Assembly (NCBI GenBank): GCA_043821645.1
Contig: JBDRCO010000042.1
Span: forward strand, 26,457-90,456
Direction: 5' to 3'
Length of the DNA stretch: 64,000 bases
DNA from: Pseudomonadota bacterium
GTDB lineage: Bacteria; Myxococcota; JACRCW01; JAFGSX01
Both the position numbers and the translations under genes were made by a program. Positions 3-22,269 of the stretch are shown here, one piece after another (the stretch's first letter is position 1; each line of letters begins with the position of its first letter). The notes beneath the pieces were generated by a model, which saw nothing but the letters and a program-made list of their open reading frames with translations, had not been told where the DNA came from and searched no databases.

Positions 3-539
3 GCAATTGCCGTGGTCGCCGCGGTGCACGGCGCGGCGCGACTGGCACCCTGGTTGCAACCACGGCTGGCCGTGCGCCTGCCCGGGCTGCGCGCGAGCAG
101 CCTGTTGGCGGCGGTCGTCCTGACCGCCACGATCCTGGTCGACACGGTGGGCCGCTGGAACCCGACCGATCTGTTCGTGCTCGAGAAACCCTACCTGCCA
201 CATCCCGACGAGCGCCCGGCGATCCGTGCCGCGATCCGCAGCGTGCCTGACGGGGTGCCGGTGGCGGCGCAGAACTATCTGGTGGCGCACCTCGCCGCCC
301 GCGAGCAGATCTACGAGCTCGACGAGTGGCAGCGCGCCCAGCTGGTGGTCCTCGACGTGACGACCAGCCCCTGGCCCTACGACAGGCGCTTCGTTGACCA
401 CCTGGCCCGGCAGCTGGCCCGGGACCCGCAGTGGGGGCTGCGCTTCTGCGAGCGCCACGCCTGGGTCTTCGAACGCGGACGGGATCCGGCACAGGCTCCT
501 GACTGTCCGGGGCTGCAGCAGCAGCTCGGCTCACCTTGA
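3..539 (+). CDS. C-terminal part of a DUF2079-like (GT-C-type) membrane protein; 5' end lies outside the window
   Basis: Frame is open from the window edge. A hydrophobic helix is followed by 'AIRSVPDGVPVAAQNYLVAHLAAREQIY', typical of DUF2079 C-termini. The stop overlaps the next gene. Confidence 0.6.
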   Translation, partial: AIAVVAAVHGAARLAPWLQPRLAVRLPGLRASSLLAAVVLTATILVDTVGRWNPTDLFVLEKPYLPHPDERPAIRAAIRSVPDGVPVAAQNYLVAHLAAREQIYELDEWQRAQLVVLDVTTSPWPYDRRFVDHLARQLARDPQWGLRFCERHAWVFERGRDPAQAPDCPGLQQQLGSP

Positions 540-2149
540 CACCCCCCAGCGCGATCCCTAACCTCGCCGCTCCCATGGCTTCCCCCGACGACAGCAGGGC
601 AACGCCTGCCAGCACCTCCGACGACGCGCGCAGCGTCGGGCGCGGTGCCCTGCTCATCGCCCTGGGCAAGGTGGTGTTCCTGTTTGCCGGGGCCGCCATC
701 AACTTCGTGCTGCCCCGGCTGCTGAGCAAGGCCGACTACGGCAACTACGGCGTCGTGATCCGCATGATCTCGCTCATCAACATGATGACCGTGATCGGTC
801 TGTTGCAGAGCGTGAGCAAGCTGGTCAGCGAGAAACCCGCTCTGGCGCGGCACAGCTTGCGTCGGGCGCTGCTGCTGGCGTCGGTGGGGTCGGTCGCGGT
901 GGCCGGGCTCTATGCGGTGCTGTCGCCGGTGGTGGCGGGGCTGCTGCGGGATGATGCCCTGGCCGCGCCCATTGCCCTGTCCGCCACCATCACCCTGGGC
1001 TACGGCGTGTACGCCGTGGTCATGGGCACGGTCAACGGACTCAAGCGCTTCAAGGCCCAGGCCCTGCTCGACATGGGTTTCTCGGTGAGCAAGGTGGTCT
1101 GCATCCTCGGCGGCGCGGTGCTGGCGAGCCTGTTGCTGGCCGACAGCACGACACCATCTGTCGCAGGGCGTGGAACGGCCTGGGCGGTGGGAGGCTTCGC
1201 GGTGGCCGCTGCCGTGATGGCGATGGTAGGCCTGGTGAGCCTGCGCGGGCTTCCCGCTGTCGACGAGCACGTGCGCGGCCAGGCGCTGCCCCCCAGGCTG
1301 TTCGCGCGCCGCCTGTTGCTGTTCGCAGGCTCGGTCATGCTGTACCAGGGCAGCCTCAACGCGCTCATGAGCGCCGATCTGCTTCTGGTCAAGCGCCATG
1401 TCACCGCCGTCGACGCGGGTCTGGCTGGTGTCTACAACGCGGCGGTCAACGTTGCGCAGCTGCCCTACTTCGGTGTGCTGGCCATCACCTTCGTGGCCTT
1501 TCCGCTGATCTCGGCCACCACCTTTTCCGAGGACAGAGCGACCACCGCGCGCTACCTGCGTACGGCTTTTCGCTACGGTGCCCTCATTGCCATTGCCGTG
1601 AGCGCGGTCGTGGCTGGCAGCGCCGGCGACGTGATCAATCTGATCTTTCCTCGCGGCTACGAAGAGGGGTCCCTGGCGCTGGCGATCCTCGTCAGTGGTT
1701 ACTCCCTGCTGGCCTTGCACGCCATCGGCTGTACCCTGCTCAATGCCGCCGGTCATCCGATGGCGTCGTTCGGAGCCACCCTGGCAGGGACGATGCTCGC
1801 CGTCACGGTCACGCTGATCGCCTTGCCCGTGCTCGGATTGGTGGGCGCTGCCCTCGGCACGCTGTGTGGAGGCGCCCTGGCTTTCACGCTGACCGTGTGG
1901 CTGCTGCGGCAACGGCTCGGCGCCACGCCGCTTGTGCTGTCCAGCTTGCGCATCGTCGCGGCGGGAGTGGCCGTGGGCGCGCTGGGCTGGGTGCTGCCAC
2001 CCCGCGGTGTCTGGCTGGTCGTGCCCTTCTGCCTCGGGATGGGCCTGCTCTTTCTGGGTCTTCTCGTCGTGCTTCGCGAGCTCGGCCGGGACGACCTGCA
2101 GGTGGCCCTGGCTCCGTTCCGGCGCCGACGGACGGACCATGTGGCGTGA
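536..2149 (+). CDS. Polysaccharide/oligosaccharide flippase (Wzx/MurJ-like, MOP superfamily)
   Basis: About 14 hydrophobic segments, 'LPRLLSKADYGNYG' and 'AGVYNAA' motifs, and a glycosyltransferase operon context. Alternative start ATG 575. Confidence 0.85.
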   Translation: MTPPSAIPNLAAPMASPDDSRATPASTSDDARSVGRGALLIALGKVVFLFAGAAINFVLPRLLSKADYGNYGVVIRMISLINMMTVIGLLQSVSKLVSEKPALARHSLRRALLLASVGSVAVAGLYAVLSPVVAGLLRDDALAAPIALSATITLGYGVYAVVMGTVNGLKRFKAQALLDMGFSVSKVVCILGGAVLASLLLADSTTPSVAGRGTAWAVGGFAVAAAVMAMVGLVSLRGLPAVDEHVRGQALPPRLFARRLLLFAGSVMLYQGSLNALMSADLLLVKRHVTAVDAGLAGVYNAAVNVAQLPYFGVLAITFVAFPLISATTFSEDRATTARYLRTAFRYGALIAIAVSAVVAGSAGDVINLIFPRGYEEGSLALAILVSGYSLLALHAIGCTLLNAAGHPMASFGATLAGTMLAVTVTLIALPVLGLVGAALGTLCGGALAFTLTVWLLRQRLGATPLVLSSLRIVAAGVAVGALGWVLPPRGVWLVVPFCLGMGLLFLGLLVVLRELGRDDLQVALAPFRRRRTDHVA

Positions 2150-2894
2150 CAGGATCCTGGCCGTGGTGCTGCCGGCCTTCAACGAGGGGCGTCTGATCCA
2201 TCGCTGCGTCGACGAGCAACCGGCGTTCGTCGATCATGTCGTGGTCGTGGATGACGCGAGTACTGACGACACCGCGCAACAGGCGCGAGCCTCGAACCGG
2301 CCCGGCCTGCACGTGCTTCGACATGCTTCGAACCGTGGTGTGGGCGCGGCCACGGTCACCGGATACCGCGAGGCGCTGCGCCTGGGCGCCGAGCTCATCG
2401 TCGGCAGCAACGGCGACGCGCAGATGAATCCCGACGACACCGAGGGCTTGCTGCAGGGTCTGCTCGACGGCGCGGACCTGGTGCGCGGCAATCGCTTCGC
2501 GCGCCCGGACACCCTGGGTGCCATGCCCGTGGAACGCCGCATGGCCACGCGCGCGCTCTCTGTTTTCATGCGCCTCGCCACGGGCATCGCGGCCGTGCAC
2601 GACAGCCAGAGCGGCTTTCATGCCCTCACCCGCGACGCCCTGCAGCGCCTGGATCTGGACGTGCTGTGGCCAGGCTATGGCTTCCCCAACGACCTGGTGG
2701 CCCGGGCCGCGGAGGCCGGCCTGCGCATCGCCGAGGTTCCGGTGGACGCCCGCTATGGCACCGAGAAGAGCGGCATCCGGCCCTGGCATGCACTGCACCC
2801 CGTGGGCACGCGCATCACCGCGGCCGCCCTGCGCCGGTTGTTCCGTCGCCGCGTGAGCCTGGCCTTCGCGCAGACGGAACCGCGGGATCCCTGA
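2139..2894 (+). CDS. Glycosyltransferase family 2 (DPM1-like polyprenol-phosphate glycosyltransferase)
   Basis: 'VVLPAFNE', 'VVVDDASTDDT', 'NRGVGAA', 'DSQSGF'. Start re-called at ATG 2139 (MWRDRILAV). Confidence 0.9.
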   Translation: MWRDRILAVVLPAFNEGRLIHRCVDEQPAFVDHVVVVDDASTDDTAQQARASNRPGLHVLRHASNRGVGAATVTGYREALRLGAELIVGSNGDAQMNPDDTEGLLQGLLDGADLVRGNRFARPDTLGAMPVERRMATRALSVFMRLATGIAAVHDSQSGFHALTRDALQRLDLDVLWPGYGFPNDLVARAAEAGLRIAEVPVDARYGTEKSGIRPWHALHPVGTRITAAALRRLFRRRVSLAFAQTEPRDP

Positions 2895-4054
2895 TGAAAA
2901 GCGTGGTGGCCACGACCAGCTACCCGCGTTTTGACGACGACGGTGCGGGGCGCTTCGTGTGGGCCTCGGTGCAGGGCTTGCGCCGGGTCGGGGTCGAGGT
3001 CGAGGTGCTGGCGCCGGACCACGTGCTGGCGAGTGCGCCCGACGTCACCTGGCTGCGGCATGCGCCCCGGCGCGGCTGGCAGACCCTGTGCTATGGCCAC
3101 GGCATCCTCCCCAACCTGGACAGCTCACCTTGGCGGGCTGTGCTCGTGCCCGGCCTGCTGGCAGCCCTGGTGCACGCCCTGGCGCAGCGAAGAGGCTGCC
3201 CCACCGTGGCGCACTGGCTGGTGCCCACGGCCCTGGCCGCCGCCCTCGCCGGGGTGGAGCCCCTGGTGGCGGTGGTGCATGGCAGCGATCTGGCGCTGCT
3301 GGAGCGCCTGCCTGGCGGACCGCAGCTGGCGCGCTTCATCGTGGCGCGCTGCCGGCGCGTCGTTTCGGTGAGCCGCGAGCTGCAGGATCGTCTGCTGCGG
3401 CTGGCCCCCGCTGCCACCGTCGAGGTGATCCCCCCGGCGGTGGAGTGCATCGTCCCCACCTCGCGCCGGCAGGCCCGCGCTGCCCTTGGCCTCGACGACA
3501 GCGCCGCCGTGGTGCTGTTGCTGGGCCGCCTGCTCGAGACCAAGGGCCTGCGCACCATGCTGTCGTGCCTGCCCGCGCTGCCCGCGCAGACCGAAATCCT
3601 GATCGCCGGCGACGGACCCCTGCGCGCCGACATCGAGAACGCTGCGCGCCAGGCTGCCCGGCCCGTGCACGTGCTGGGCGCCATCGCCCCGTCGACGCGC
3701 GCCACTCTGTTTGGCGCCGCGGATCTGGTGGTCGTACCTTCGCAGCCGGATCCCTGGGGCCATGCCGAGGGCCTGCCTGCGGTGCTGCTCGAGGCCATGG
3801 CGGCCGGGGTCCCGGTCGTCGCCAGCGCGGTGGGGGGGATCCCCGACACCGTGGTCGATGGAGAGACCGGCTTGCTGGTTCCTGCAGCCGACGCCAGCGC
3901 CCTGGGGCAGGCCCTGTGCCGGGTGCTCGACGATGAGGGGCTGCGCCAGCGACTTGCGCACAGGGCGCAGCAGGCCATACAACCCCTGCTGGGACGCGGG
4001 CACGGCGAGCGCATGCGGGCCCTGCTCGAGCCGCCACCCGGGAGAGCGGTGTGA
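2894..4054 (+). CDS. Glycosyltransferase family 4
   Basis: TGATG stop/start overlap at 2892-2896. Motifs 'TTSYPR', 'HGSD', 'GRLLETKG' and the 'EGLPAVLLEAMAAG' EX7E motif. Confidence 0.9.
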   Translation: MKSVVATTSYPRFDDDGAGRFVWASVQGLRRVGVEVEVLAPDHVLASAPDVTWLRHAPRRGWQTLCYGHGILPNLDSSPWRAVLVPGLLAALVHALAQRRGCPTVAHWLVPTALAAALAGVEPLVAVVHGSDLALLERLPGGPQLARFIVARCRRVVSVSRELQDRLLRLAPAATVEVIPPAVECIVPTSRRQARAALGLDDSAAVVLLLGRLLETKGLRTMLSCLPALPAQTEILIAGDGPLRADIENAARQAARPVHVLGAIAPSTRATLFGAADLVVVPSQPDPWGHAEGLPAVLLEAMAAGVPVVASAVGGIPDTVVDGETGLLVPAADASALGQALCRVLDDEGLRQRLAHRAQQAIQPLLGRGHGERMRALLEPPPGRAV

Positions 4055-5169
4055 GTCAGATCCTCGTCGTCAGCAAGCCCTTCGCGCCCCCCTGGCGCGA
4101 TAGCTCCAAGAACCTGGCGCGGGAGCTGGTGCGCGCTGCCACCGCGACTCGCTTCCGGGTGCTGACCCCTCCGGGTCTGCGACTCCCCTTCGACCACGTC
4201 GTCACCGAGGGCGTGTACCGGCACGCCGGTCGCTTCGAGCCCGGCCTGCTGCAGAACCTGCGCGTGCTTGCTCGCCTGCTGCAACCCGCGCAGGCCGATC
4301 TGATTCACTTCTTCTTTGCACCCAGCGCTCGCACCGCGCGGGCCGCTCGCCTGGCCCTGTCCCTGCCAGGCCGACGCCTCCCGACGGTGCAGACCGTGTG
4401 CAGCCTGCCCGTCGATGGCCTGGCGGTGCGCCCTGGCCTGTTCGCCGACGCCACGGTGGTCCTTTCCAGATACGCGCAACAGCGTCTGCTGGCCGAGGGT
4501 GTCGCCGGTGTTCACTGCATCGCGCCGGCAGTGCGGGCTGCACCCTGGCCCTCGCCGCGACGCCGCCAGCGCCTGCGCCGGCTGCTGGGGCTGGTCGACG
4601 GACCGGTGGTGCTGTTTGCGGGGGACCTGGAGCCTGCCCGCGGCGCCGCGACCCTGATCGAGGCGGTGCCTGCCCTGCGCGCGGCCCTGCCTGACATCCA
4701 GGTGGTGATCGCGGCCCGCGCCAAGACGCCAGCCACGCGGGTCCATGCCCGGGAGCTGAACGATCGTGTCAATCGGCTTGGCGCCGCCTCCTGCGTGCGC
4801 TTCGTGGGCGAGGTGCGCCACATGCGGGCCTGGCTGGCTGCCGCCGACGTGCAGGTACTGGTCGCGCGATCCCTCGAGAAGAAGATGGACTATCCACTGG
4901 TGCTGCTCGAGGGCCTGGCGCGAGGACTCCCCGTCGTGGTCAGCGACAGGCCGCCGCTGTCCGAGATCCTGGAACTGGCGCCGGGCGCAGGTCGCCGCGT
5001 CGCGCCCGACGATCCTGAAGCCCTGGCGCATGCGGTGGCGACGCTGCTCGATGACAGCACCGCCCTCGACGCTGCGCGCCATGCGGCACATCGTGGCGTG
5101 CGCGCGTTTTCCCCTGCGCTCATGGCAGAACGCTACGTGGATCTGTACCGGTCGCTGCTCCCAGCCTGA
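4051..5169 (+). CDS. Glycosyltransferase family 4
   Basis: GTGA overlap with the upstream gene. 'DYPLVLLEGLARGLPVVVSD' GT-B C-terminal motif. Confidence 0.85.
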   Translation: MSQILVVSKPFAPPWRDSSKNLARELVRAATATRFRVLTPPGLRLPFDHVVTEGVYRHAGRFEPGLLQNLRVLARLLQPAQADLIHFFFAPSARTARAARLALSLPGRRLPTVQTVCSLPVDGLAVRPGLFADATVVLSRYAQQRLLAEGVAGVHCIAPAVRAAPWPSPRRRQRLRRLLGLVDGPVVLFAGDLEPARGAATLIEAVPALRAALPDIQVVIAARAKTPATRVHARELNDRVNRLGAASCVRFVGEVRHMRAWLAAADVQVLVARSLEKKMDYPLVLLEGLARGLPVVVSDRPPLSEILELAPGAGRRVAPDDPEALAHAVATLLDDSTALDAARHAAHRGVRAFSPALMAERYVDLYRSLLPA

Positions 5170-5204: not shown

Positions 5205-5723
5205 CTACAGCGTCTTGGCGTAGATGACCTTGTCGTCGCCAGGCGCGTAGAAATTGCGCAGGCGCGCCTCCTCGAGATAGCCCGTGCGCAGGTAAAAGGC
5301 GCGGGTCGCGTCGTAGCCAGGCTTGCCGGCAGTCTCGATGAGCACCAGGTGACCGTCTTGCTCGCGTACGGCCTGCTCGCAGCGCTCGACCAGGCGCCGG
5401 CCCACACCCAGGCCCTGTGTCGACGGGTCCACCGCGATCCAGTACAGGTCGAAGGTTGCCACCGTGCAGGGGGTATGGCCCCAGCACACGTAACCCACGA
5501 CCTGGCCGGCGTGCTCGGCCACGGCGAAGTGGTAGGCGTCGGGCGTCCCGTCGTCACCTTCGTCGATGAGCTCGAGAGCCACCGCCACCTCGTCGTCGGA
5601 GAAGGCCGCGGTGTCGATGAGGATTCGCTGCAGGGGCTCGCGGTCCTCCGGGCGCAGGGGCCGGATCGAGACCTCAGGCGCGCTGCGCGGTGTCGCGGAC
5701 GATGCGATCGATGAGCTCGTCAT
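5205..5723 (-). CDS. GNAT family N-acetyltransferase
   Basis: 'LYWIAVDPSTQGLGVGRRL' acetyl-CoA motif A and 'TRAFYLRTGY'. Last gene of the kamA module; overlaps the upstream ligase. Confidence 0.9.
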   Translation of the reverse strand: MTSSSIASSATPRSAPEVSIRPLRPEDREPLQRILIDTAAFSDDEVAVALELIDEGDDGTPDAYHFAVAEHAGQVVGYVCWGHTPCTVATFDLYWIAVDPSTQGLGVGRRLVERCEQAVREQDGHLVLIETAGKPGYDATRAFYLRTGYLEEARLRNFYAPGDDKVIYAKTL

Positions 5724-6684
5724 AGGGTATGCCGCTCCGTTCTGCGGCCCGCGCCAGGCCGGCGTCGGGCGAGATATCTGGGTTCGGGTTGACCTCGAGC
5801 ACGCAGGGCTGTCCGTCGTGGTCGAGGCGGAGATCCACCCGGCCGTAGTCGCGCAGGCCCACGGCGCGGTACGCGTCCAGGGCGGTGCGGCGAATGGCCG
5901 CCGCCAGCGCAGGCGCCAGGGCGCGCGCGGCGATGGACGGGGTCTTCAGAAAAGCCTCGCTGTCCTCGGCCCACTTGGCCTCGTAGGTGACCAGCGGCGG
6001 GTGCGACGCCGGCAGCTCGTCGAAGGCGATCTCGGCGAGCTCCAGGCAGTGGGCGTCGGCGCCGGCTCCGAGCACGGCCACGTTGAACTCCCGTCCAGGA
6101 AGGAAGCTCTCGACCAGCGCGGGTTGCCGGTAGCGTGCCACGACGTCCCGCGCCCGGGTCCGTGCCATGGCCTCGTTTGCGACCACGCTGTCGACGGTGA
6201 TGCCATGGCTGGCGTCCTCGTGGGCGGGCTTGACGATGGCCGGGTAGCGCAGGTCGCCGAAGGGCTCGTTGCCGTTCACCACCAGCACACCCGGCGCCAC
6301 GGCGATGCCGCGATCACGCAGCACAGCCTTGCACAGGGGCTTGTCGAGCCCCAGGGTCATGGCCTCGGGAGGGGAGCCGGTGTAGCGCAGCCTTGCCAGT
6401 TCGTAGAGCCAGGCCATGGCCGCTTCGAGTCGCGCATCGCCACCCAGGGCCTCGACCAGGTTGAACACCAGCTCCACGTCGAGCCCGGCCAGGGTTCTCG
6501 CGAGGGTGGGCAGGTCCGGCTTCAGTCCGATCATCTCGGCGCGATGCCCGCGCGCCTGCAGCGCCTGCGTCACAGCGCGGGCGCAGGGCACCACCGCGGC
6601 CACGGCGAGGGCGTCGCCGGCGTCACCGTGCAGCAGCGCGGCGTCGTCGTTGTACAGGACGGCGATGCGAAGGCCCATGACCAC
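5674..6684 (-). CDS. D-Ala-D-Ala-ligase-like ATP-grasp enzyme (non-canonical)
   Basis: 'LVFNLVE', 'YTGS', 'LDK', 'IVKP..EDASHGI', 'GREF', 'YGRVDLR', 'LEVNPNP'. Lacks the N-terminal GGxSxE motif of true Ddl. Start may be ATG 6678. Confidence 0.85.
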   Translation of the reverse strand: MVMGLRIAVLYNDDAALLHGDAGDALAVAAVVPCARAVTQALQARGHRAEMIGLKPDLPTLARTLAGLDVELVFNLVEALGGDARLEAAMAWLYELARLRYTGSPPEAMTLGLDKPLCKAVLRDRGIAVAPGVLVVNGNEPFGDLRYPAIVKPAHEDASHGITVDSVVANEAMARTRARDVVARYRQPALVESFLPGREFNVAVLGAGADAHCLELAEIAFDELPASHPPLVTYEAKWAEDSEAFLKTPSIAARALAPALAAAIRRTALDAYRAVGLRDYGRVDLRLDHDGQPCVLEVNPNPDISPDAGLARAAERSGIPYDELIDRIVRDTAQRA

Positions 6685-7674
6685 CTACAGCTTGTAGCGC
6701 GCCCGGGCGCTGTCCACGATCCCGGCGATGAGGCTGTCGTAGGTCATACCGCGGCCGCGCGCCAGGATGCACAGGTCGCTGGTCTCGGGATTGAGTCCGG
6801 GCAGGGGGTTGATCTCGATGAAGGCAGGCCGCCCGGCGTCGTCCAGGCGAAGATCCACCCGCGCCACGTCGCGACAGTCCAGCGCGGCATAGGCCTGCAG
6901 GGCGATCTTCTCTGCCTCCTCGACCACCGCCGGCGCCACCGTCGGCGGCACCTTGTAGGCGACCTGGTTGCGCCAGTCGCGCTTGACCTCGAGCGAGTAC
7001 ACGAAGCTCTCGAGCCCCAGCTGGGTGGGCGCGATCTCCATGGTGCCGATGACCTTGGCCCGGCCGCGCACCCCGAGCACGCCCACGGTGAGCTCGACGC
7101 CGGGACAGAAGCCCTCGACCAGCACCGGCTGATCATAGTCGTCGAGCTGGCGCCGGCATTCCTCGCGCAGCTCCTCGGCGTCGGTGACCCGGGAGCTGAG
7201 CCGCACGCCCATGCTCGAGCCCTCGGCCAGGGGCTTGACCAGCAGCGGGAAACCCATCTTGAGCTTGCGCAGGTCGGCCAGGTGGCGCACCACCGCGAAG
7301 GGCGGCGTGGGCACCCCGGCGGCGGCCACCACCCGCTTGGTCAGGGCCTTGTCCAGGCTCAGGGCCAGGGCCAGGGGGTCCGAGTGGGTGCAGGGCACAC
7401 CCAGCATCTCGCACAGCGCCGGCACCTGGGCCTCGCGGGAGCGCGCGCCCCGCCCCTCGGCAATGTTGAACACCAGCTGGGGTGGGCGGGCCAGCAGGGC
7501 CTCGGCAAAGGCGCGGCCGCCACCCAGGCGTCGCGGGCTGTGGCCGTGGGCCCTGAGCGCCTGCTCCAGGGCCGCGATGGTGCTCTCCTCGTCGTACTCT
7601 TCCAGGCGGTCGATGGGAGCCTCGGCCGCCGCGGTGAAGCTGCTCTTGAGATCGTAGGCCAGACCGATGTCCAT
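6685..7674 (-). CDS. D-Ala-D-Ala-ligase-like ATP-grasp enzyme (non-canonical)
   Basis: 'LVFNIAEG', 'LDKALTK', 'VKPLAEGSSMG', 'ARVDLR', 'IEINPLPG'. Lacks GGxSxE. Confidence 0.85.
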   Translation of the reverse strand: MDIGLAYDLKSSFTAAAEAPIDRLEEYDEESTIAALEQALRAHGHSPRRLGGGRAFAEALLARPPQLVFNIAEGRGARSREAQVPALCEMLGVPCTHSDPLALALSLDKALTKRVVAAAGVPTPPFAVVRHLADLRKLKMGFPLLVKPLAEGSSMGVRLSSRVTDAEELREECRRQLDDYDQPVLVEGFCPGVELTVGVLGVRGRAKVIGTMEIAPTQLGLESFVYSLEVKRDWRNQVAYKVPPTVAPAVVEEAEKIALQAYAALDCRDVARVDLRLDDAGRPAFIEINPLPGLNPETSDLCILARGRGMTYDSLIAGIVDSARARYKL

Positions 7675-7724
7675 CGCCTTGTACCTCGCTATTTTTCGAG
7701 GGGGCGTCGGGCGCCTACCCTCTC

Positions 7725-7792
7725 CAGGGGCGGTCGGCCCGCCCCTCGTCGCCGGGAGTGAATCCCGTCGACTTCACCCCGGCAGCACCTGA
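7725..7792 (-). repeat. Dispersed structured element, copy 1 (candidate cis-regulatory RNA or REP-like repeat)
   Basis: Reverse complement matches 31970-32038 at 64 of 69 aligned positions by manual alignment. Contains two hairpins and is enclosed by a 9-bp inverted repeat (7700-7708 / 7838-7846). Confidence 0.85.
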
Positions 7793-7871
7793 GCTCGGCG
7801 TGGGCGGGCGACACCTCGCCCTTCAGGGGAGCGCCAGGACGCCCCCCCGTGCGCCGTGCAAAGGACAGGGG

Positions 7872-9149
7872 TCAGCGGATCTCGATCACCTCGGCCCCAC
7901 CGCCGTCGCTGGGCGCAGCTGTCCCCGGCTCCATGAGCCAGGTGCTGGGTGTGGGCAGGTCAAGCTGGGTCGGGTTGGCTCCTGCCATGGCCTCGGCAGA
8001 CAGAGGCTGCGGGTCGCGGTACTCGAGGAGCTTGCCCTGGAAGTTGCGAAGCACGGCTTCACCGCGGGTGACGTCGTAGGCCAGCAGGTAGTCGGGGCCG
8101 ACCGGGATCTTGCCGCCGCCGCCAGGGGCGTCGATGACGTAGGTCGGCACGGCCAGGCCGCTGGTGTGGCCGCGCAGGCCGGCAATGATGTCGATGCCGC
8201 GCTGGATCGAGGTGCGAAAGTGTTCGGCACCGCGCACCGGGTCGCACTGAAAAAGGTAGTAAGGCCGCACCCGCATGCGCATCAGGCGGTGGGTCAGCTC
8301 GCGCATGGTGCCGACGTCGTCGTTGACACCCTTGAGCAGCACGCTCTGGTTGTTGAGCGGGATGCCCGCGCGCAGCAGCTTGTCGCAGGCCGCCGTGGCC
8401 TCGGGCGTGCACTCGCGGGGGTGCTCGAACTGCACGTTCATCCACACCGGGTGGTACTTGGCGAGCATCTGGCACAGGTCGTCGGTGATGCGCTGGGGCA
8501 TGACGCAGGGCACCCGGGTGCCTATGCGGATGACCTGGACGTGGGGGATGGCGCGCACCTTCTTGAGCACGCCCTCGAGCCGCGCCGTCGACAGGCACAG
8601 GGGATCGCCACCGGAGATGATGACGTCGCGAATCTCGGGGTGGCGCGCGATGTACTTGACCATGCGGCCCAGCTCGAGCCTGGGCACTGCGCCCTCGAAC
8701 ATGAGCCGCTTGCGCGTGCAGTGGCGGCAGTACATGGCGCAGGTGTTGCTGATGACCATCAGCACCCGGTCCGGATAGCGGTGGGTCAGTCCGGGCACGG
8801 GCGAGTGGCCCTCCTCGTGCAGCGGATCGTCCTCACCCACGTTGCGGTACAGGTACTCGTCGAGGCTGGGCAGGGACTGGCGGGCGATGGGATCGTCCGC
8901 ATCGTCCAGGTCGATGAGCGACAGGTAGTAGGGCGTGATGCCGATGCGAAAGTTCTGCACGACCTTCTGCCAGACCGCGTGATCTCCGTCGGCGACGCGC
9001 CACAACTTCTCGAGTTCATCGAGCGAGGTGATGCGGTGCCTGAACTGCCAGCGCCAGTCTGTCCATTCGGCTTGGGTGACGGCGGGAAACAGCCGCGCAC
9101 GTCGCTGCGAGTGCGGCTCGATGTCCTGCTCGTCGATGCTCTGCTCCAT
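7872..9149 (-). CDS. kamA: Lysine 2,3-aminomutase (KamA-type radical SAM/PLP enzyme)
   Basis: 'WTDWRWQ', 'GLTHRYPDRVL', CxxxCxxC 'CAMYCRHC', 'YYLFQCD', and the 'YVIDAPGGGGKIP' PLP-lysine motif. Start re-called at ATG 9149. Confidence 0.92.
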   Translation of the reverse strand: MEQSIDEQDIEPHSQRRARLFPAVTQAEWTDWRWQFRHRITSLDELEKLWRVADGDHAVWQKVVQNFRIGITPYYLSLIDLDDADDPIARQSLPSLDEYLYRNVGEDDPLHEEGHSPVPGLTHRYPDRVLMVISNTCAMYCRHCTRKRLMFEGAVPRLELGRMVKYIARHPEIRDVIISGGDPLCLSTARLEGVLKKVRAIPHVQVIRIGTRVPCVMPQRITDDLCQMLAKYHPVWMNVQFEHPRECTPEATAACDKLLRAGIPLNNQSVLLKGVNDDVGTMRELTHRLMRMRVRPYYLFQCDPVRGAEHFRTSIQRGIDIIAGLRGHTSGLAVPTYVIDAPGGGGKIPVGPDYLLAYDVTRGEAVLRNFQGKLLEYRDPQPLSAEAMAGANPTQLDLPTPSTWLMEPGTAAPSDGGGAEVIEIR

Positions 9150-9336
9150 TCTTTCTGCCCCGGCGTCTCGGTGACGTCGCCCACAACGGCGGGCCCCGAC
9201 GAGACGCATAGTGATTTTTTGGGTTGGTTGAAGAGGCGTTGTTATGAGCCGTGTTCGTGGCTCGCCCCCGAAAAGGTTGGTACCTCTTTACCTACTCCAG
9301 CTGTACCCACCTGCAAGACTTATTTGGAGGCTGGAT

Positions 9337-11121
9337 TCACTTTTTTGTCGACGGGGGAGGGGGCGGGGCGGGGGAGGGGGTCGCTGACCGGGACTCGCCC
9401 CCGCGCAGGCCGAGCAGGCCCCCGAAGAAGCCCCGGGCACTGGCTCCCAGGGAGCGCACCCGGTAGCCCCCCTCCTGCACCACCAGGGTGGGCAGACCGA
9501 GCTCGCCGATGCGGCGGCCGTTGGCGGCGAAGTCTGCGGCGCGCAGGGTGAAGGATCCGGTGGGGTCGTCCTTGCCCGTGTCGTAGCCCAGGCAGACCAC
9601 CAGGTAGGCCGGCTTGAAGCGGCGGATCCGGGCCAGGGCCTGATCCAGGGCCTTGAGGTAGGCCGGCCCGTCCAGGCCCTCGGGGAGCGGCAGGTTGAGG
9701 TTGAAGCCCTTGCCCGGGCCCTCGCCGGTCTCGTTGTCGAAGCCGCTGAAGTAGGGGTAGCTCAGGCGCGGGGTGCCATGGATGGACACGGTGAGCACGT
9801 CGTCGCGCTGGTAGAAGATGTCCTGGGCGCCGTTGCCGTGGTGGTAGTCCACGTCCAGGATGGCCACCTTGCCGTAGGTCGACAGCTCATGGGCCGCCAC
9901 CGCCGCTGTGTTGAAGTAGCAAAAGCCGCCGAATACCCGACGCTCGGCGTGGTGGCCAGGGGGCCGCACCAGGGCGTAGGCCAGGGGGTAGCCGCCGAGC
10001 AGGGCGTGGGCGCCGCTGAGGCCGCAGTCCACGGCCCGGCGCGCCGCCAGGTAGGCGTTGCGGTTGAGCGGGGTGAAGGTGTCGATGCAGTAGTAGCCCG
10101 CGCGCAGTGGAAGCTCCCGGGGCGGCCGGGTCGCGTTGCGCACCGGGAACACATAGGGATAGACGGACTCGCCCTCGTCCAGGCTCAAGCAGGCGCGCCT
10201 CAAGTAGTCCACGAACTCCTTGTCGTGCACCGCCTTGATGGCGTCCTCGGAGAAGTGGTTTACCCGCATGCGCTCGAACCAGCCCGTGGGCTCCAGGCCG
10301 CGCAGGATCGAGCGGATGCGCGCCGGCGCCTCGACGTAGCCGCGCTCGCGCACGTGGTGGATGTCGTGCTTGTCGTTGACGTACAGGGCGATCTTGCGCG
10401 GCCGCACCGGCTCAGGCTCGGTCTTCTTCTTCTGGTAGCGCGGGGGCCTGAGCTGCACCGGGTCGTCGACGATGGAGTCGAGGATCATGCTGTTGTATTC
10501 GGGCGAGCAGGTGCCCTTGTACTTGCGCTCCAGGATCACCCTCACCGCGGCCCGCACCTGGTCCCGGCTCGGCAACGTGGCCGGCCCCAGCAGATCCAGC
10601 ACCAGGTAGGGAGGATCCGTGGTGCCCGGCTTCACCGGCGTCTCGTAGCGGGTGTTGGCCAGGGGCCTGGCCCCCCAGCGCTCGTAGAAGCGGAGTCGCG
10701 CCGCGTTCTGGGCCCGGATGACAGGGTCCGGGGACAGCCCCGGGTCGTCGGGCAAGCACTCGAAGTACAGGGCGTGGGCGCCCAGGGCCAAAGATTCCTC
10801 GCGCACGCGCTCGTACAGGGCTCCACCCACGCCGCCCGAGGTGATCTTGGGTGCGGTGGCGATGAAGTCGAGGTAGCAAAAGCCCGCGTCCGGGGCGTGC
10901 AGCAGCAGGGCAAAGCCCTTGACCTGGCCGCGGTCGTTCTCGGCGGCCAGCAGCACCGCGCGAAAGCCAAACTTCAGCGGGTTGTCGAGCTGGCGCGGGA
11001 TCTTGGCGACGTCTTCGGCCTTCAGGGCTCCGAACTGGGCGCGCAGGATCTCCTGCACCTGGGCAATGGCGCTCTGGTTGGCGGGGGTGGTGGTGTCGGC
11101 GATTTTTCGGATGCGGAACAT
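9337..11121 (-). CDS. GNAT-like domain fused to a Zn-dependent histone deacetylase-family (acetylpolyamine amidohydrolase-like) domain
   Basis: N-terminal 'YLDFIAT...GGVGGALY...ARLRFYERWG'. C-terminal 'RPPGHHA', 'GGFCYFN', 'LDVDYHHGNG', 'GYD..KDD', 'QEGGY'. Confidence 0.9.
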   Translation of the reverse strand: MFRIRKIADTTTPANQSAIAQVQEILRAQFGALKAEDVAKIPRQLDNPLKFGFRAVLLAAENDRGQVKGFALLLHAPDAGFCYLDFIATAPKITSGGVGGALYERVREESLALGAHALYFECLPDDPGLSPDPVIRAQNAARLRFYERWGARPLANTRYETPVKPGTTDPPYLVLDLLGPATLPSRDQVRAAVRVILERKYKGTCSPEYNSMILDSIVDDPVQLRPPRYQKKKTEPEPVRPRKIALYVNDKHDIHHVRERGYVEAPARIRSILRGLEPTGWFERMRVNHFSEDAIKAVHDKEFVDYLRRACLSLDEGESVYPYVFPVRNATRPPRELPLRAGYYCIDTFTPLNRNAYLAARRAVDCGLSGAHALLGGYPLAYALVRPPGHHAERRVFGGFCYFNTAAVAAHELSTYGKVAILDVDYHHGNGAQDIFYQRDDVLTVSIHGTPRLSYPYFSGFDNETGEGPGKGFNLNLPLPEGLDGPAYLKALDQALARIRRFKPAYLVVCLGYDTGKDDPTGSFTLRAADFAANGRRIGELGLPTLVVQEGGYRVRSLGASARGFFGGLLGLRGGESRSATPSPAPPPPPSTKK

Positions 11122-11236
11122 GGCACCTCGTGGCGGGCTACGGTTGCTGTGTGTGCGCTAATATGACGAGCCCGTCGTCGCTGCGCAAGCACTGCGCGAT
11201 TTACAGCGCGGCCCCCGCTTGCCACAATGCGTAGCC

Positions 11237-11998
11237 ATGAAGATGGACCCACAGCGCTACTACGACGCCTTCAGCGAGGGCTACGACTCCCGACGGCACG
11301 ATGGCTACCACGCCCTGCTCGACGAGCTCGAGAGCGCCCTGGTGCAGGCGTACTGCACGGATCGCCACGTCCTGGACGCGGGCTGCGGCACGGGCCTCAT
11401 CCTGCAGCGGGTGCAGCGCGAGCTGCGTTCCCTCGTCGGCGCGGATCTGTCGGGCGGCATGCTGCGCAAGGCGGCCACCCGCAGCACGGCCTCCCTGGTG
11501 CAGGCCAGCCTGACCCAGCTGCCCTTTGCCGATGCCAGCTTCGATGCCGCCTACAGCTTCAAGGTGCTGGCGCACATCCCCGACATCCGCGGAGCCGTGG
11601 CCGAGCTGGGGCGCGTGGTGAAACCCGGCGGCCACCTGCTGCTCGAGTTCTACAACCCGCTGAGCATTCGCGGCCTGCTGTGGCACCTCAAGCGACCGGG
11701 GCGCATCGCCCGCGGTGTGCGTGAGCGCGACGTGTTCGTGCGCTTTGACACCCCGCACCGGGCCCAGAGTTATCTGCCCGACAACTTCTCCGTCGTCGAG
11801 ACCCGGGGCATCCGGGTGGTCACGCCCTTTGCCCAGCTGCTGCGGATGCCTGGCCTGGGCCCCCTGGTGGCTGATGCCGAGCGCCTGCTGGCCACCAGTC
11901 CGGCGCGGGTGCTGGGCAGCTTTTTCGTGGTGGTGGCACAGCGTCGCGATGGAGGCGAGTGCTGCGACGACGCTCCGGCAGCGCCCAGGTCTCACTGA
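11237..11998 (+). CDS. Class I SAM-dependent methyltransferase
   Basis: 'VLDAGCGTG', 'LPFADASFD', 'RVVKPGG'. Confidence 0.9.
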   Translation: MKMDPQRYYDAFSEGYDSRRHDGYHALLDELESALVQAYCTDRHVLDAGCGTGLILQRVQRELRSLVGADLSGGMLRKAATRSTASLVQASLTQLPFADASFDAAYSFKVLAHIPDIRGAVAELGRVVKPGGHLLLEFYNPLSIRGLLWHLKRPGRIARGVRERDVFVRFDTPHRAQSYLPDNFSVVETRGIRVVTPFAQLLRMPGLGPLVADAERLLATSPARVLGSFFVVVAQRRDGGECCDDAPAAPRSH

Positions 11999-12004
11999 CC
12001 GCCG

Positions 12005-14194
12005 ATGGCACATTCTGATCCCAGCCCACCTCCCCCCGGTGCCCGGCCAGTGACCTGGCGTGACCGGTTGCGGCCCTGGTGGCTGCTGGTCGCTGCCATC
12101 GGCCTGCTGTTGACCTGGCTGGAGACCCTGCTGGCCGGCATCCGCGGCCTGCTCGCGCCCGGCGACGGTGCCTGGCTGTCCGCCCTGGTTGCACCCGGCC
12201 CTGGCCTGCTGTGCTGGACCTTGCTGGCGACACTGCTCGCGCCTGCCCTCGACCTGCTGGCGCGCTGGCTGCTGCCGCGCCTTGGCAAGCAGGTGGCGCT
12301 TCGCCTCGTCTGGCTCGGCTGGGCTGCCCTGCTGGGCGGGCTGCTGGCCGCGGTTCTGGCCGGGATGATGACCCTGCGCGCCGAGCGCATCACCGAGCGC
12401 GACTTCGCGGTCGTCACGGTGGCCCTGGCCGCGGCCGTCGGCGCTGTGGCGGGCGCGGGACTGCTGGTGCTCCTCGGCCTGAGGCGGGCACGCCCGCTCG
12501 AGGCCGCACGCGCCGGCTGGGCAGCAGGGTTGGTGGTGGCGCTGAGCACGGGCCTGGGCGTCGTGACCCTGGCCGGCTTGCTGTGTGCGTACGACCAGCA
12601 GCTGGCCTCGACGCGTGTTGTGCTGTGGCTGGCCGTGGGAGGTGGCCTGGTCCTGCTGGCCAGCCTGGTGGGTCTGGCCCTGCCCGCACTGCAGGCGAGC
12701 TGGCTCAACCTGGCGCGGGGCCGCTGGGCTACTGGTCTGCTGCTGGCGCTGGTCGTCGCCGGATGGGTGCTGGCCGCCGTCGTGCTGCACCTGCGGCCTG
12801 ACGCGTCCGCGGCCCTGCTGCGCAGTGGGGGCCCGGCGGCGCGCACGCTGCTGCTGCTGCGGCAGCTCAGCGATGTCGATGGCGACGGGGCCGCCGCCTG
12901 GCTCGGCGGTGGCGACTGCGCACCCTTCGATCGCCAGCGCCATCCCCTGGCCCTGGACATCCCGGGCAATGGCATCGACGAGAACTGCGATGGTGCCGAT
13001 GCGGCCCAGGCCAGCTCACTCCCCGGCGCCAGCAGCGCGCGCTTCGCCGCGGTTCCGGCCGACCTGGTGCGCAAGCGCAACGTGCTCCTCATCGGCATCG
13101 ATGCCCTGCGTGGCGATCACGTGGGTTTTGGTGGCTACCAGCGGCCGGTCACGCCCTATCTCGACCGCCTGGCGCGCCGAAGCTGGGTGTTCACCAACAC
13201 CCTGGCGGCCTCGTCGACCACCCGGCAGTCGGTGCCCGTCCTGTTCAGCGGGCGCTGGGTCAGCGGCCTGCGCTGGAACCCGGGCACGCCCGTGGACCAG
13301 CTCGACAAGAAGAACCTGATGCTGCCCGAGATCCTCAAGGCGGCGGGCTATCGCACCATGGCGGTGGTCGACGAGTGGCTGCCCAAGTTCCTGAGCAGCT
13401 TCAACCAGGGCTTTGACAGCTTCGAGGCGGCCTACGGCGTGGGCCACTGGACAGAGCACGGCCAGTTTGCCGCCCCCTACAGCACGGCCCTGGCCCTGCA
13501 ACGCATGTTCGAGCGCGACCCCAAGAAGCCCTACTTCTTATATGTGCACTACGAGGCGCCGCACTTCCCCTACGTGGCCCACCCCGAGGTGGCGGACTTC
13601 GGTGCCCGCCCCATCGACCTGTACGATGCCGAGATCGCCTACGTGGACCGCGCCGTGGGTCAGCTGCTCGAGATGTTCGAGGCCCGGGGATGGCTCACCG
13701 ACACCCTGATCGTTGTCTTCGGCGATCATGGCCAGGAGTTCAAGGAGCACGGCCGCACCAAGCATTCGCGCGCCCTCTTCGTCGAGAGCGTGCATGTGCC
13801 TCTGCTGCTGCACGTGCCCGGGCAGGCGCCCCGCGTCGTGCCCCAGCGCGTGTCCCTGGTCGACGTCGCGCCGACCCTGCTCGACCTGCTCGGGTTGCCG
13901 GCGCCGGACTTCAAGCCCCAGGGCCGCAGCCTGCTGTACCCGCTGCTCACCGGGAGCAGCTCCGACGACAGGGCCTTTCTGGCAGAGCTGCTGATCATCG
14001 AGGGCGGCAAGCACGAGGACCTCAAGTCCCTGCTGCTGGGTCGCCACAAGTTGATCTGGAACATGACCAGCGGCGAGAAGCTGCTGTACGATGTGCAGGC
14101 CGATCCCGGGGAGCTCAAGGCCCTCGACGACGAGGCCCTGAAGCAGCAGCTGAGCCAGCGCCTGCAGCACGAGCTGGCCACCGCAGGCCAGTGA
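12005..14194 (+). CDS. Membrane-anchored alkaline-phosphatase-superfamily (sulfatase-like) hydrolase/transferase with a MopE-type metal-binding motif
   Basis: About 7 TM helices, then 'DCAPFD...DIPGNGIDENCDG', 'NVLLIGIDALR', 'HYEAPH', 'FGDHG'. No CxPxR motif. Confidence 0.85.
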   Translation: MAHSDPSPPPPGARPVTWRDRLRPWWLLVAAIGLLLTWLETLLAGIRGLLAPGDGAWLSALVAPGPGLLCWTLLATLLAPALDLLARWLLPRLGKQVALRLVWLGWAALLGGLLAAVLAGMMTLRAERITERDFAVVTVALAAAVGAVAGAGLLVLLGLRRARPLEAARAGWAAGLVVALSTGLGVVTLAGLLCAYDQQLASTRVVLWLAVGGGLVLLASLVGLALPALQASWLNLARGRWATGLLLALVVAGWVLAAVVLHLRPDASAALLRSGGPAARTLLLLRQLSDVDGDGAAAWLGGGDCAPFDRQRHPLALDIPGNGIDENCDGADAAQASSLPGASSARFAAVPADLVRKRNVLLIGIDALRGDHVGFGGYQRPVTPYLDRLARRSWVFTNTLAASSTTRQSVPVLFSGRWVSGLRWNPGTPVDQLDKKNLMLPEILKAAGYRTMAVVDEWLPKFLSSFNQGFDSFEAAYGVGHWTEHGQFAAPYSTALALQRMFERDPKKPYFLYVHYEAPHFPYVAHPEVADFGARPIDLYDAEIAYVDRAVGQLLEMFEARGWLTDTLIVVFGDHGQEFKEHGRTKHSRALFVESVHVPLLLHVPGQAPRVVPQRVSLVDVAPTLLDLLGLPAPDFKPQGRSLLYPLLTGSSSDDRAFLAELLIIEGGKHEDLKSLLLGRHKLIWNMTSGEKLLYDVQADPGELKALDDEALKQQLSQRLQHELATAGQ

Positions 14195-14215
14195 CGCGAC
14201 CGGCTCCGGAGCGAG

Positions 14216-15991
14216 ATGGCCAATACACCGCAGCCCGCCCTGTCCTCGACGCCGCCACGCCCGCGACAGTGGCTGGGGGGTGTGGGGGTGCTGCTGCTGT
14301 TCCTGGCGCTGGCAGTGGCTCAGACCTGGGGCTACTTCGAGGGCTGGTCCTCGACCACGCGGGTGCGCGACTGGGTGGTCTACCAGGCTGCGCTGGAGAC
14401 CACGCGCCAGAGCGTGCGGGAGTACCGCGAAGTTCCCGCCTGGGACCCCTGGCGTTGCGGTGGTGCGCCGCACCTGGCCAACCCCTTCGTCGACGCCCTG
14501 TCGCCCTGGGGTGCGCTGGTGCTGCTGCTCGATGTGGCGCCGACGGTGCGCCTGAACGTGCTGGTGCACCTGCTGGCGGCCATGCTTGGCATGTGGTGGT
14601 GGGCGCGGCGGCGTGGCCTCGATGTCGTGCCCGCCCTGGCCGCGGCCCTGGCCTTTGGCCTGTCGGGCTTCTTCATCGCCGCCACCTCCTGGGGCTTTGC
14701 CTTCTTGCTGCCCGCCGCCTACCTGCCCCTGGTCCTCGCCGGCTACGAGGCAGGCCGCGAGCGCTGGACAGGGGCCTTGCCCGCCGCCGCTGCGGTCGCG
14801 CTCATGCTCCTCGAGGGCGGGCTGGGGGTAGCGCAGGCCAGCCTGTTCCTGCTGAGCCTGCTGGTGCTGATCGATCTGCGTCAGCATGCGCAGCCCAGGT
14901 TGCTCATCCTGCGCAGCGCGTCCGTCGTCGTGGTCGGCGCCCTGGTCCTGGCGGCGGTCAAGTGGTGGCCCATGGCCCTGCACCTGCAGCAGGCCGCGAT
15001 GGCGCCCCTGCAGAGCGACACCCTGACCCTGACCCAGCTGGTGGAGATCTTCCTCGGCCGCGACCTGGGTCATCGCGCGCCGGGCTTTCGCCTCGAACGC
15101 TTCGAGTACTTCGGCTACATGGGGCCGCTCGTCGTCGCGGCGGTGGCCTGGGGGCTGTGGCACGTGCGCGAGCCCGGCTTCTGGCGCATCTACGTGCTGG
15201 CGGGCCTGTGGACCTTGCTCGTGCTCGGCAACCAGGGACCCTGGCTGCCCTACGCCTGGCTCGGCCACCTGCCCTGGCTGCACGCCATGCTGAGTGCGCC
15301 GTCGCGACTGGCCGTGATGCTGGGTGCGCTGTGGGCCCTGGTGTTCGGGTTGGTCCTGCAGCGGGCGCTGGTGGCCCTGCGCGCGCGTTGGCCGGGTCGG
15401 CCCTGGCAGGCCGTGCTCGCCCTGGTGCCGCTGCTCCTGGTCGGCGATCAGCTCTGGCTGGCCCAGCGCGCCTGGCGTGTGCACCCCTTTGCCGGCGACG
15501 CCATCGCCCGCGAGCGCGGACCCTTTCACCTGGTCGACGGCGACCGGCCCTCGCAGCTTGCCAACCAGCGCCAGAACAAGGGCACGATCCGGTGCTACGA
15601 GCTGATGCCGGTCTCCCCCTCGAAGGTGCTGCGCCGGGGTGTGCAAAGCCAGGCCTGGCTCGAGCCGGCAAGCGCTGGCCAGCTCGAGGTCGAGCGGCAG
15701 AGCCCCAACCGCTGGATCCTCGACGTCAAGCTGGGTGCTGCGGCGCGCGTCCTGGTCAACCAGAACGCCGCCCCTGGCTGGAGCGTCGAGGGTGAACTGC
15801 CCGCCACCCTGCACTCCGTCGACGGGGTGCTGGCTCTGGACCTGCCGGCGGGGCAGGGCCGTCTCACGCTCCACTACCGCACGCCCGGGCTGCTCCCGGC
15901 GGCGCTGCTGTCCGCGCTGGCCTGGCTGGCGCTGCTGATCGGGATCCTGCGCGCGGGGTGGCGACGTCACCGCGTGGCCCACCCCTACTGA
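14216..15991 (+). CDS. YfhO-like polytopic membrane protein (GT-C-type glycosyltransferase-like)
   Basis: 'PAWDPWRCGGAPHLANP' motif, many TM segments, and a C-terminal 'NQNAAPGW' periplasmic domain followed by a final TM helix. Confidence 0.7.
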   Translation: MANTPQPALSSTPPRPRQWLGGVGVLLLFLALAVAQTWGYFEGWSSTTRVRDWVVYQAALETTRQSVREYREVPAWDPWRCGGAPHLANPFVDALSPWGALVLLLDVAPTVRLNVLVHLLAAMLGMWWWARRRGLDVVPALAAALAFGLSGFFIAATSWGFAFLLPAAYLPLVLAGYEAGRERWTGALPAAAAVALMLLEGGLGVAQASLFLLSLLVLIDLRQHAQPRLLILRSASVVVVGALVLAAVKWWPMALHLQQAAMAPLQSDTLTLTQLVEIFLGRDLGHRAPGFRLERFEYFGYMGPLVVAAVAWGLWHVREPGFWRIYVLAGLWTLLVLGNQGPWLPYAWLGHLPWLHAMLSAPSRLAVMLGALWALVFGLVLQRALVALRARWPGRPWQAVLALVPLLLVGDQLWLAQRAWRVHPFAGDAIARERGPFHLVDGDRPSQLANQRQNKGTIRCYELMPVSPSKVLRRGVQSQAWLEPASAGQLEVERQSPNRWILDVKLGAAARVLVNQNAAPGWSVEGELPATLHSVDGVLALDLPAGQGRLTLHYRTPGLLPAALLSALAWLALLIGILRAGWRRHRVAHPY

Positions 15992-16008
15992 GCCGGAGTG
16001 CGCGCCCC

Positions 16009-22183: not shown

Positions 22184-22191
22184 GCCGTCTT

Positions 22192-22269
22192 CTATCTCGT
22201 CGACAGGGCCTTTGTCATGCGCTCGCGCCCGCATGGCATCTGGGTGTGGGGGTATGTCCCACCTTTCAT
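22192..22269 (-). CDS. Candidate 25-aa small ORF (MKGGTYPHTQMPCGRERMTKALSTR): possible leader or precursor peptide
   Basis: GGAGG lies 7 nt upstream of ATG 22269, and the TAG ends 8 nt before the radical SAM ATG 22183. Not in the ORF track. Confidence 0.3.
   Translation of the reverse strand: MKGGTYPHTQMPCGRERMTKALSTR

Follow-up and report, generated by a model that had tools for sequence, protein, structure and literature searches.

What could be made by five genes that stand together on one strand of a Myxococcota genome and encode a lysine 2,3-aminomutase-like protein, two ATP-grasp ligases resembling D-alanine-D-alanine ligase (Ddl), a small acetyltransferase of the GNAT family and a second GNAT domain fused to a deacetylase? 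The genes occupy positions 5205-11121 of a 64,000-nucleotide stretch of contig JBDRCO010000042.1 (assembly GCA_043821645.1, positions 26,457 to 90,456 of the forward strand), and this whole stretch is called the window below. Our answer, to which we give a probability of roughly 0.6, is that they make a small N-acetylated peptide built around beta-lysine, without a ribosome or a nonribosomal peptide synthetase (NRPS). The enzyme families, their intact catalytic residues, the linkage of the genes and their natural fusions are seen directly in the sequences, and the argument starts from them.

A five-gene cassette and its conservation

The five open reading frames (ORFs) are all on the minus strand, at the coordinates given for five co-oriented genes in the first-pass annotation, which was made from the letters of the window without database searches. 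The domain identities assigned there, i.e., a GNAT-HDAC fusion, KamA, two Ddl-like ligases and a GNAT, are matched by Pfam. The genes are as follows:

9337-11121, minus strand: fusion of a GNAT domain and an acetylpolyamine amidohydrolase, 594 aa (the accessory protein)
7872-9209, minus strand: KamA, lysine 2,3-aminomutase family, 445 aa
6685-7674, minus strand: AG1, Ddl-like ATP-grasp ligase, 329 aa
5674-6684, minus strand: AG2, second Ddl-like ATP-grasp ligase, 336 aa
5205-5723, minus strand: small RimI-like GNAT acetyltransferase, 172 aa

Third-position GC is 0.85-0.92 in the five ORFs, as expected of genes in a window with a GC content of about 69%, and they are therefore regarded as real genes. 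The start codon of AG2 abuts the stop codon of AG1, and the ATG of the small GNAT, for which there is no alternative in-frame start, lies 50 nt inside the 3′ end of AG2. For KamA, the second ATG at 9149, preceded by a purine-rich stretch, is the more likely start codon judging from the sequence. All five proteins look cytoplasmic. Neither efp/EF-P nor EpmA nor KamD/E-type domains were found in the 41 window ORFs scanned (small ORFs in part), in agreement with the earlier statement that efp/epmA and kamD/kamE genes are missing from the window.

Relatives of AG1 were sought in one genome per species and were found at no fewer than 584 places. The neighbourhood counts given here refer to the best 80 of these at least 584 loci, and the denominators are the loci with enough flanking DNA. 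A kamA gene is located directly upstream of AG1 on the same strand in 62 of 73 loci and anywhere in the locus in 65 of 73, the second ATP-grasp gene comes next after AG1 in 64 of 73, and a GNAT gene is present in 54 of 68 and missing from 14 of 68. KamA, AG2 and the GNAT are found all together at 44 of 62 loci. The co-occurrence that the first-pass annotation proposed to check is thus borne out. By record titles, the loci belong to at least 12 phylum-level groups: Planctomycetota, Myxococcota, Chloroflexota/Dehalococcoidia, Thermodesulfobacteriota, Acidobacteriota, Verrucomicrobiota, Lentisphaerae, Bacteroidota/Ignavibacteria, Cyanobacteria, Actinomycetota, Krumholzibacteriia and Alphaproteobacteria. 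Dozens of unrelated genomes show this same gene order, which makes chance a very unlikely cause of the arrangement.

Furthermore, the genes are joined to each other in some organisms. The 120 long relatives of AG1 include one KamA-AG1 protein (P0121) and one AG1-AG2 protein (P0129), while the 44 long relatives of the small GNAT include 38 AG2-GNAT proteins and five in which the accessory GNAT-deacetylase continues into the small GNAT. Among the best 150 relatives of the N-terminal domain of the accessory protein, this domain is fused to AG2 in P0295 and P0329 and to the small GNAT in P0430. Every neighbouring gene pair is tied by natural fusions.

The aminomutase, the ligases and the acetyltransferases

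KamA has the Pfam domains LAM_C and Radical_SAM and can be aligned over 365 residues with the solved lysine 2,3-aminomutase of Clostridium (2A5H; E 7e-132). In this alignment, the CxxxCxxC motif (CAMYCRHC), the equivalent of the pyridoxal phosphate (PLP)-binding lysine K337, and the aspartates of QCD (D293) and DAPGGGGK (D330) are retained. D293 and D330 of 2A5H are the residues that bind the epsilon-ammonium group of lysine. Both aspartates and all three cluster cysteines are found in 67 of 67 cassette KamAs, and the PLP lysine in 66 of 67; the lysine-type aspartates to which the first-pass annotation had drawn attention in the window protein are accordingly common to every copy compared. As for family models, KamA passes the KamA subfamily TIGR00238 (356 bits against a cut-off of 199). 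Its best NCBIfam model is AblA, with 493.3 bits against a cut-off of 525.4 that is not reached, and the glutamate, arginine and EpmB aminomutase models give lower scores that fall further below their cut-offs (for EpmB, 247 bits with a cut-off of 369).

AG1 and AG2 share about 35% identity, and both match Pfam Dala_Dala_lig_C (7e-34 and 1.2e-26, respectively). Their closest solved relatives are Ddl enzymes (E 6e-28 for AG1 and 6e-21 for AG2), with which they share the fold and the catalytic residues of ATP-grasp enzymes, and a search of the ESM Atlas returned clusters named "Ddl family protein" only. The ATP/Mg and transition-state residues K147, R272, D274, E287, and N289 of AG1 are present in 76 of 76 sequences, and K152, R282, D284, and N299 of AG2 in 60 of 60, position 297 of AG2 being E or D. 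The whole invariant set comprises E26, D28, N70, E73, R80, E81, K147, Y226, K231, R272, D274, E287, N289, G293, and D300 in AG1 (76/76), and E78, K152, S159, K237, W238, R282, D284, R286, N299, and N301 in AG2 (60/60). AG1 relatives at 55-66% identity are found in several phyla.

The differences from Ddl and VanA lie at the D-Ala-binding positions of Ddl, which are an N-terminal GGxSxE motif, a Lys-Tyr pair and a Ser-Leu site. GGxSxE is missing from the N-termini of both AG1 and AG2, as the first-pass annotation had noticed. The Lys-Tyr pair is replaced in AG1 by K231 followed by a variable R, E, D or Q, and in AG2 by K237-W238. The Ser-Leu site is S/G299-D300 in AG1 and, at 308-309 of AG2, mostly Ala or Ser followed by Gly; D300 of AG1 occupies the place at which the second substrate of Ddl is bound by its carboxylate. 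Against the Ddl subfamily model, AG1 scores 170 bits and AG2 132 bits with a cut-off of 243, and the cut-off of every Ddl model is failed by both. Since, in addition, their genomic partner is kamA and not a mur gene, AG1 and AG2 were rejected as D-Ala-D-Ala ligases.

A polymer was considered as an alternative product. If the ligases acted iteratively, they would form an epsilon-linked oligo- or poly-beta-lysine or a cyanophycin-like storage polymer, whose charge or toxicity would be gated by acetylation and deacetylation. The invariant acidic residues E26, D28, E73, E81, and D300 of AG1 would suit a polycationic substrate, and cyanophycin synthase is a distant ATP-grasp relative of AG1 (E 5.5e-5 for the AG1 profile against PDB). 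Likewise, the small GNAT resembles nourseothricin acetyltransferase to a small degree (E 7e-5 in a PDB search), and the deacetylase is of the acetylpolyamine type. The similarities invoked are weak, however. No conserved depolymerase, exporter or primer-related gene is found in the neighbourhoods, and a defined short product would better explain the two distinct, separately conserved ligases and the tight fusion of a capping GNAT. A polymer is therefore unlikely. A specific form of the idea, in which the KamA-coupled ligase pair builds an epsilon-linked oligo-beta-lysine polycation resembling the side chain of streptothricin, with its charge and activity gated by GNAT acetylation and amidohydrolase deacetylation, seems quite improbable. 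In streptothricin, beta-lysine chains are made by NRPS-type enzymes, together with acetyltransferases, and the kamA-yodP sporulation operon of Bacillus subtilis combines beta-lysine formation and N-acetylation with a deacetylase of another family. Both systems couple beta-lysine formation to N-acetylation like the cassette, but neither uses ATP-grasp ligases.

A parallel to the pairing of KamA with AG1 is found in pyrrolysine synthesis, where PylB is a radical-SAM (S-adenosylmethionine) lysine mutase and PylC, an ATP-grasp ligase of the Ddl superfamily, couples the product of the rearrangement to an amine. KamA is, however, a PLP-dependent 2,3-aminomutase and not of the PylB type, and the cassette has no PylD; no pyrrolysine enzyme appears by name among the 49 PDB matches of the AG1 profile at E <=0.01. 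A prediction of an AG1-AG2 complex gave a score of 0.24, where the mark is 0.32, and is counted neither for nor against an interaction.

Another arrangement of AG1-like domains was also encountered. In the other 118 of the 120 long relatives of AG1 (P0122-P0240), two ATP-grasp halves are combined in one protein of about 660-880 aa. Most of these proteins come from Myxococcota, for example P0235 of Sorangium sp. So ce204 with 762 aa. When the halves were scored with hidden Markov models (HMMs) of the AG1 and AG2 families, the C-terminal half was AG1-like (about 380 bits with the AG1 HMM) and the N-terminal half lay between AG1 and AG2. From these scores, the tandem proteins look like a paralogous double-ligase family.

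The small GNAT matches Pfam Acetyltransf_7 (1.8e-13). Its best NCBIfam model is RimI, with 46 bits against a cut-off of 86, and no beta-lysine acetyltransferase (AblB) family is among its 10 NCBIfam matches at E <=0.01; being RimI-like and matching no such model, it was rejected as an AblB. The closest solved relative is 2r7h (E 1.2e-32), which carries the Foldseek label DDE_3044 of Desulfovibrio desulfuricans.

The likeness to RimI bears on the possibility that beta-lysine is transferred by the ligases to a macromolecule. This could be a protein, in an ATP-grasp version of the beta-lysylation of EF-P, or a precursor of the cell envelope. Precedents exist, in that proteins are modified by ATP-grasp enzymes such as RimK and acetylated at their N-termini by GNATs of the RimI type, and in the window the cassette adjoins polysaccharide-synthesis genes. 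These genes are on the opposite strand, though, and are not conserved elsewhere, and neither efp, epmA, mur nor another conserved target gene stands beside the cassette in the 80 loci. With KamA below the EpmB cut-off (247 against 369) and the cassette dispensable in Desulfovibrio alaskensis G20, as described below, a macromolecular target is very unlikely.

The accessory protein matches Hist_deacetyl at 2.8e-71 (240.7 bits, cut-off 27.9) and, weakly, Acetyltransf_1 at 1e-5. It consists of two domains:

10402-11121, minus strand: N-terminal domain with a GNAT fold, residues about 1-240
9424-10335, minus strand: C-terminal acetylpolyamine-amidohydrolase-type deacetylase, residues 263-566 (from Pfam)

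The closest solved relatives of the C-terminal domain are acetylpolyamine amidohydrolases (9gkz, 6phr, 3men, and 3q9b; E 8e-73 to 6e-62). All of the 11 orthologues compared keep H390, H391, D423, D425, H427, D514, and Y553, among which are the His-His dyad (H390 and H391), the Asp/His/Asp metal ligands (D425, H427, and D514) and the catalytic Tyr (Y553). The domain thus resembles these enzymes and the HDAC10-type polyamine deacetylases in sequence and in the residues kept; it differs from them in its fusion to a GNAT domain of a small family and in its genetic tie to the beta-lysine cassette. The N-terminal domain has no match in NCBIfam or PDB sequence searches. Its AlphaFold2 model (pLDDT 87.7) was matched by Foldseek to GCN5, AAC(6'), RimI, and 2r7h with E of about 1e-8, indicating a GNAT fold, and a glycine-rich cofactor loop, GxGxG/A, is conserved. 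The family has 566 cluster representatives at E <=1e-3 among 1.84 billion; its best 150 members contain 25 full GNAT-deacetylase proteins, and apart from the three fusions mentioned above the remainder are metagenomic fragments.

Of the 80 loci, 10 encode the accessory protein; the figure is 9 of 51 when at least 4 kb is available on both sides. It precedes kamA in the window, lies between kamA and AG1 at L024 and L033, between AG2 and the GNAT at L039, L067, and L076, and after the GNAT at L017, L042, L055, L061, and L071. Four different positions beside the same core amount to repeated re-insertion, which argues for a shared function. On the other hand, deacetylation is not a core step, because most loci have no accessory protein. 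Of the module with reversible acetylation imagined in the first-pass annotation, the linkage of the deacetylase fusion to the core stands; the deacetylase itself is an optional accessory.

The core is also present in a model organism. In their supplements, Kuehl et al. (2014; PMC4045070) give Dde_3040 to Dde_3044 of D. alaskensis G20 as consecutive plus-strand genes for a sigma-54 two-component regulator (Dde_3040), a lysine 2,3-aminomutase (Dde_3041), two Ddl-like proteins (Dde_3042 and Dde_3043) and a GCN5-like acetyltransferase (Dde_3044). The same supplements class all five, Dde_3040-3044, as dispensable, with several archived transposon mutants per gene, and place ablA (Dde_0189), ablB (Dde_0188) and a third KamA-family gene (Dde_2747) elsewhere in the genome (PMC4045070). 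The four genes Dde_3041-3044 follow the order of the window, and Dde_3044 is the protein of PDB 2R7H; from gene order and annotation, we infer that Dde_3042 and Dde_3043 are the orthologues of AG1 and AG2. Because G20 has ablA and ablB separately, the cassette coexists with the acetyl-beta-lysine pathway and is not a mere duplicate of it.

This bears directly on the most conventional explanation, namely that the locus is the known AblA/AblB pathway for the osmolyte N-epsilon-acetyl-beta-lysine, or a lysine fermentation, standing beside unrelated cell-wall Ddl paralogues. As in the AblA/AblB pathway of methanogens and some bacteria, a KamA-family aminomutase is followed by a GNAT, which is the minimal content of such a pathway, and AblA is the best model of KamA. 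However, KamA stays under the AblA cut-off, the GNAT is RimI-like and fits no AblB model, and two ligases, which score below the Ddl cut-offs and lack the Ddl motifs, occupy a conserved place between kamA and the GNAT and are joined to both in other organisms. Together with the presence of both systems in G20 and the lack of kamD/E-type genes in the window ORFs scanned, this makes the explanation highly improbable.

A proposed pathway and the points against it

The cassette is uncharacterised, while its parts are known enzyme families and its logic has precedents. A literature search, which extended to papers other than subscription-only ones, gave no description of a cassette of aminomutase, ATP-grasp and GNAT genes. 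A negamycin preprint and a sigma-54 regulon paper proved unrelated to it, a Desulfovibrio vulgaris sigma-54 regulome paper and its supplements mention no aminomutase, and the cassette genes are not listed in the supplements of a high-pressure paper.

The chemistry proposed here, that is, two amide bonds on beta-lysine and the identity of the product, is inferred from sequence and gene context. First, KamA would turn L-lysine into beta-lysine, as its radical-SAM and PLP residues and the two lysine-binding aspartates suggest. AG1, genetically the closest to KamA, would then use ATP to form an acyl phosphate and, from it, the first amide bond involving beta-lysine. AG1 is placed first because it is the ligase that remains with kamA in minimal loci and is fused to KamA once, and its invariant acidic residues, including D300 at the carboxylate site of Ddl, would suit a substrate with extra amino groups. 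In a third step, AG2 would form the second amide bond and its RimI-like GNAT partner would acetylate the remaining free amine.

The model for this third step is Ngg, the nearest parallel that is known to work, an enzyme responsible both for acetylating glutamine and for making the peptide bond in N-acetylglutaminylglutamine (PMC8070244). As described in that source, Ngg and AsnO make an N-acetylated peptide independently of NRPS by means of a GNAT and an ATP-grasp enzyme, with a repressor gene alongside (PMC8070244). The cassette follows the same GNAT and ATP-grasp logic, with AG2 and the GNAT being one protein in 38 relatives, but it has no counterpart of the AsnO amidotransferase, none being found among its conserved neighbours, and adds a second ligase and an aminomutase. 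The domain order of Ngg is the reverse of that in the AG2-GNAT fusions.

Where the accessory protein is present, a fourth step may follow: its amidohydrolase domain would deacetylate an aminoalkyl chain, e.g., at N-epsilon-acetyl, and its own GNAT domain would add an acetyl group elsewhere, for turnover, activation or regulation. The product may protect against stress as a solute, store nitrogen or have another role.

Several points weigh against this proposal. Eight of 73 loci, including those of Sandaracinaceae (L013 and L017), have no kamA within 10 kb, and a substitute conserved gene upstream of AG1 was sought at the loci without kamA and not found. Another eight, mostly of Nostoc, have kamA and AG1 alone, and the survey covers the 80 best of the at least 584 loci. 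As the AblA score (493 against 525) is under the cut-off, KamA may act on a basic amino acid other than lysine. The parallel with Ngg is an analogy and not homology, because the AG2-GNAT fusion P0241 matched no Ngg family model among the 25 matches listed of its 33 NCBIfam matches. A purely osmotic role is not favoured, since the source names include freshwater, soil and gut samples. Finally, fitness values of Dde_3041-3044 ranged from -0.53 to +0.46, i.e., no effect, in the 10 phosphate-limitation conditions of supplementary file 3 of PMC5193443; the G20 mutants being viable and without a fitness effect under phosphate limitation, no phenotype indicates a role.

Variant loci, surrounding genes and meaning

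Some loci carry additional or fewer genes. At 11 loci, mainly of Planctomycetota, there is a gene for a DUF3109 protein with eight invariant cysteines (for example L002:12486-13097, L004:7410-7994, L018:12649-13284, L022:7951-8460, and L027:9384-9998), which directly follows the GNAT gene in most of them and precedes AG1 in L027. The protein may be a metal or Fe-S partner, e.g., for the radical-SAM enzyme. Nostocaceae loci are more reduced: L043, L052, L060, L063, L072, and L078 have kamA and AG1 only, and L068, on a plasmid of Nostoc linckia, has AG1 without kamA within 10 kb. Between kamA and AG1, a SET-domain gene of the lysine methyltransferase type is found at L043:4907-5320 and, judging from gap size, at L060, L072, and L078. 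Furthermore, ABC exporter or MatE genes adjoin AG1 loci (L043:6294-8060, L052:11005-12813, L063:11054-12433, and L068:11105-12496), and these Nostocaceae loci may represent a variant with a methylated and exported product. TetR genes take the directly upstream position at nine or more loci. In the window, no homologue of the DUF3109, TetR or SET gene was found.

Such neighbours suggest, as an alternative, that the product is an exported bioactive beta-lysine peptide, with the GNAT giving self-protection by acetylation and the deacetylase activating the compound. Acetyltransferase-deacetylase pairs serve self-protection and activation in some antibiotic pathways, TetR lies directly upstream at those at least nine loci, and an exporter stands beside the minimal kamA-AG1 loci of Nostocaceae. 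Yet at most loci no exporter is adjacent, the deacetylase has no obvious signal peptide and is missing from most loci, and the syntenic spread over many phyla, including Dehalococcoidia with their small genomes, looks like physiology and not secondary metabolism. A bioactive peptide is thus distinctly unlikely.

In the window, both flanks of the cassette are occupied by genes on the opposite strand. On the low side, polysaccharide-synthesis genes run convergently with it, the plus-strand series at 536-5169 having a flippase-like gene, one GT2 gene and two GT4 genes. Upstream of this series, positions 43-58 of the plus strand agree fully with the sigma-54 promoter consensus, TGGCAC-N5-TTGCA; over the whole window there are 40 consensus matches against 34 expected, which is not above chance, and scans for promoters, terminators and sigma-54 motifs around the cassette gave nothing exceeding chance. 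The high-side flank (11219-17340, plus strand) is divergent from the cassette and encodes a SAM methyltransferase, a 729-aa protein with a C-terminal sulfatase domain, a 591-aa protein without a Pfam match and an MFS transporter, none of which is kept beside the cassette at other loci. Elsewhere in the window are genes for a radical-SAM/SPASM protein, a bacterial alpha-2-macroglobulin, a two-subunit 2-oxoacid:ferredoxin oxidoreductase, several sigma-54 activators and a DUF4388 response regulator, the coordinates listed for these other genes being 20906-22576, 39003-43889, and 56311-58810, all on the minus strand. The overall gene content is consistent with a Myxococcota genome.

If the proposal is true, bacteria of at least 12 phyla, among them Planctomycetota, Myxococcota, Dehalococcoidia, sulfate reducers, Acidobacteriota, Verrucomicrobiota, Bacteroidota, and Nostoc, have in common a metabolite derived from lysine that has gone unrecognised, and they make it by a compact route without a ribosome or NRPS. 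Hundreds of genes annotated as "D-alanine--D-alanine ligase" are probably misnamed, and 2R7H, a structure from structural genomics that has no assigned function, would be placed in a pathway. Were the oligo-beta-lysine version to hold, it would mean an endogenous, acetyl-gated polycation system across a dozen phyla. The proposal can be tested directly in G20, which holds the four-gene core with archived transposon mutants in every gene.

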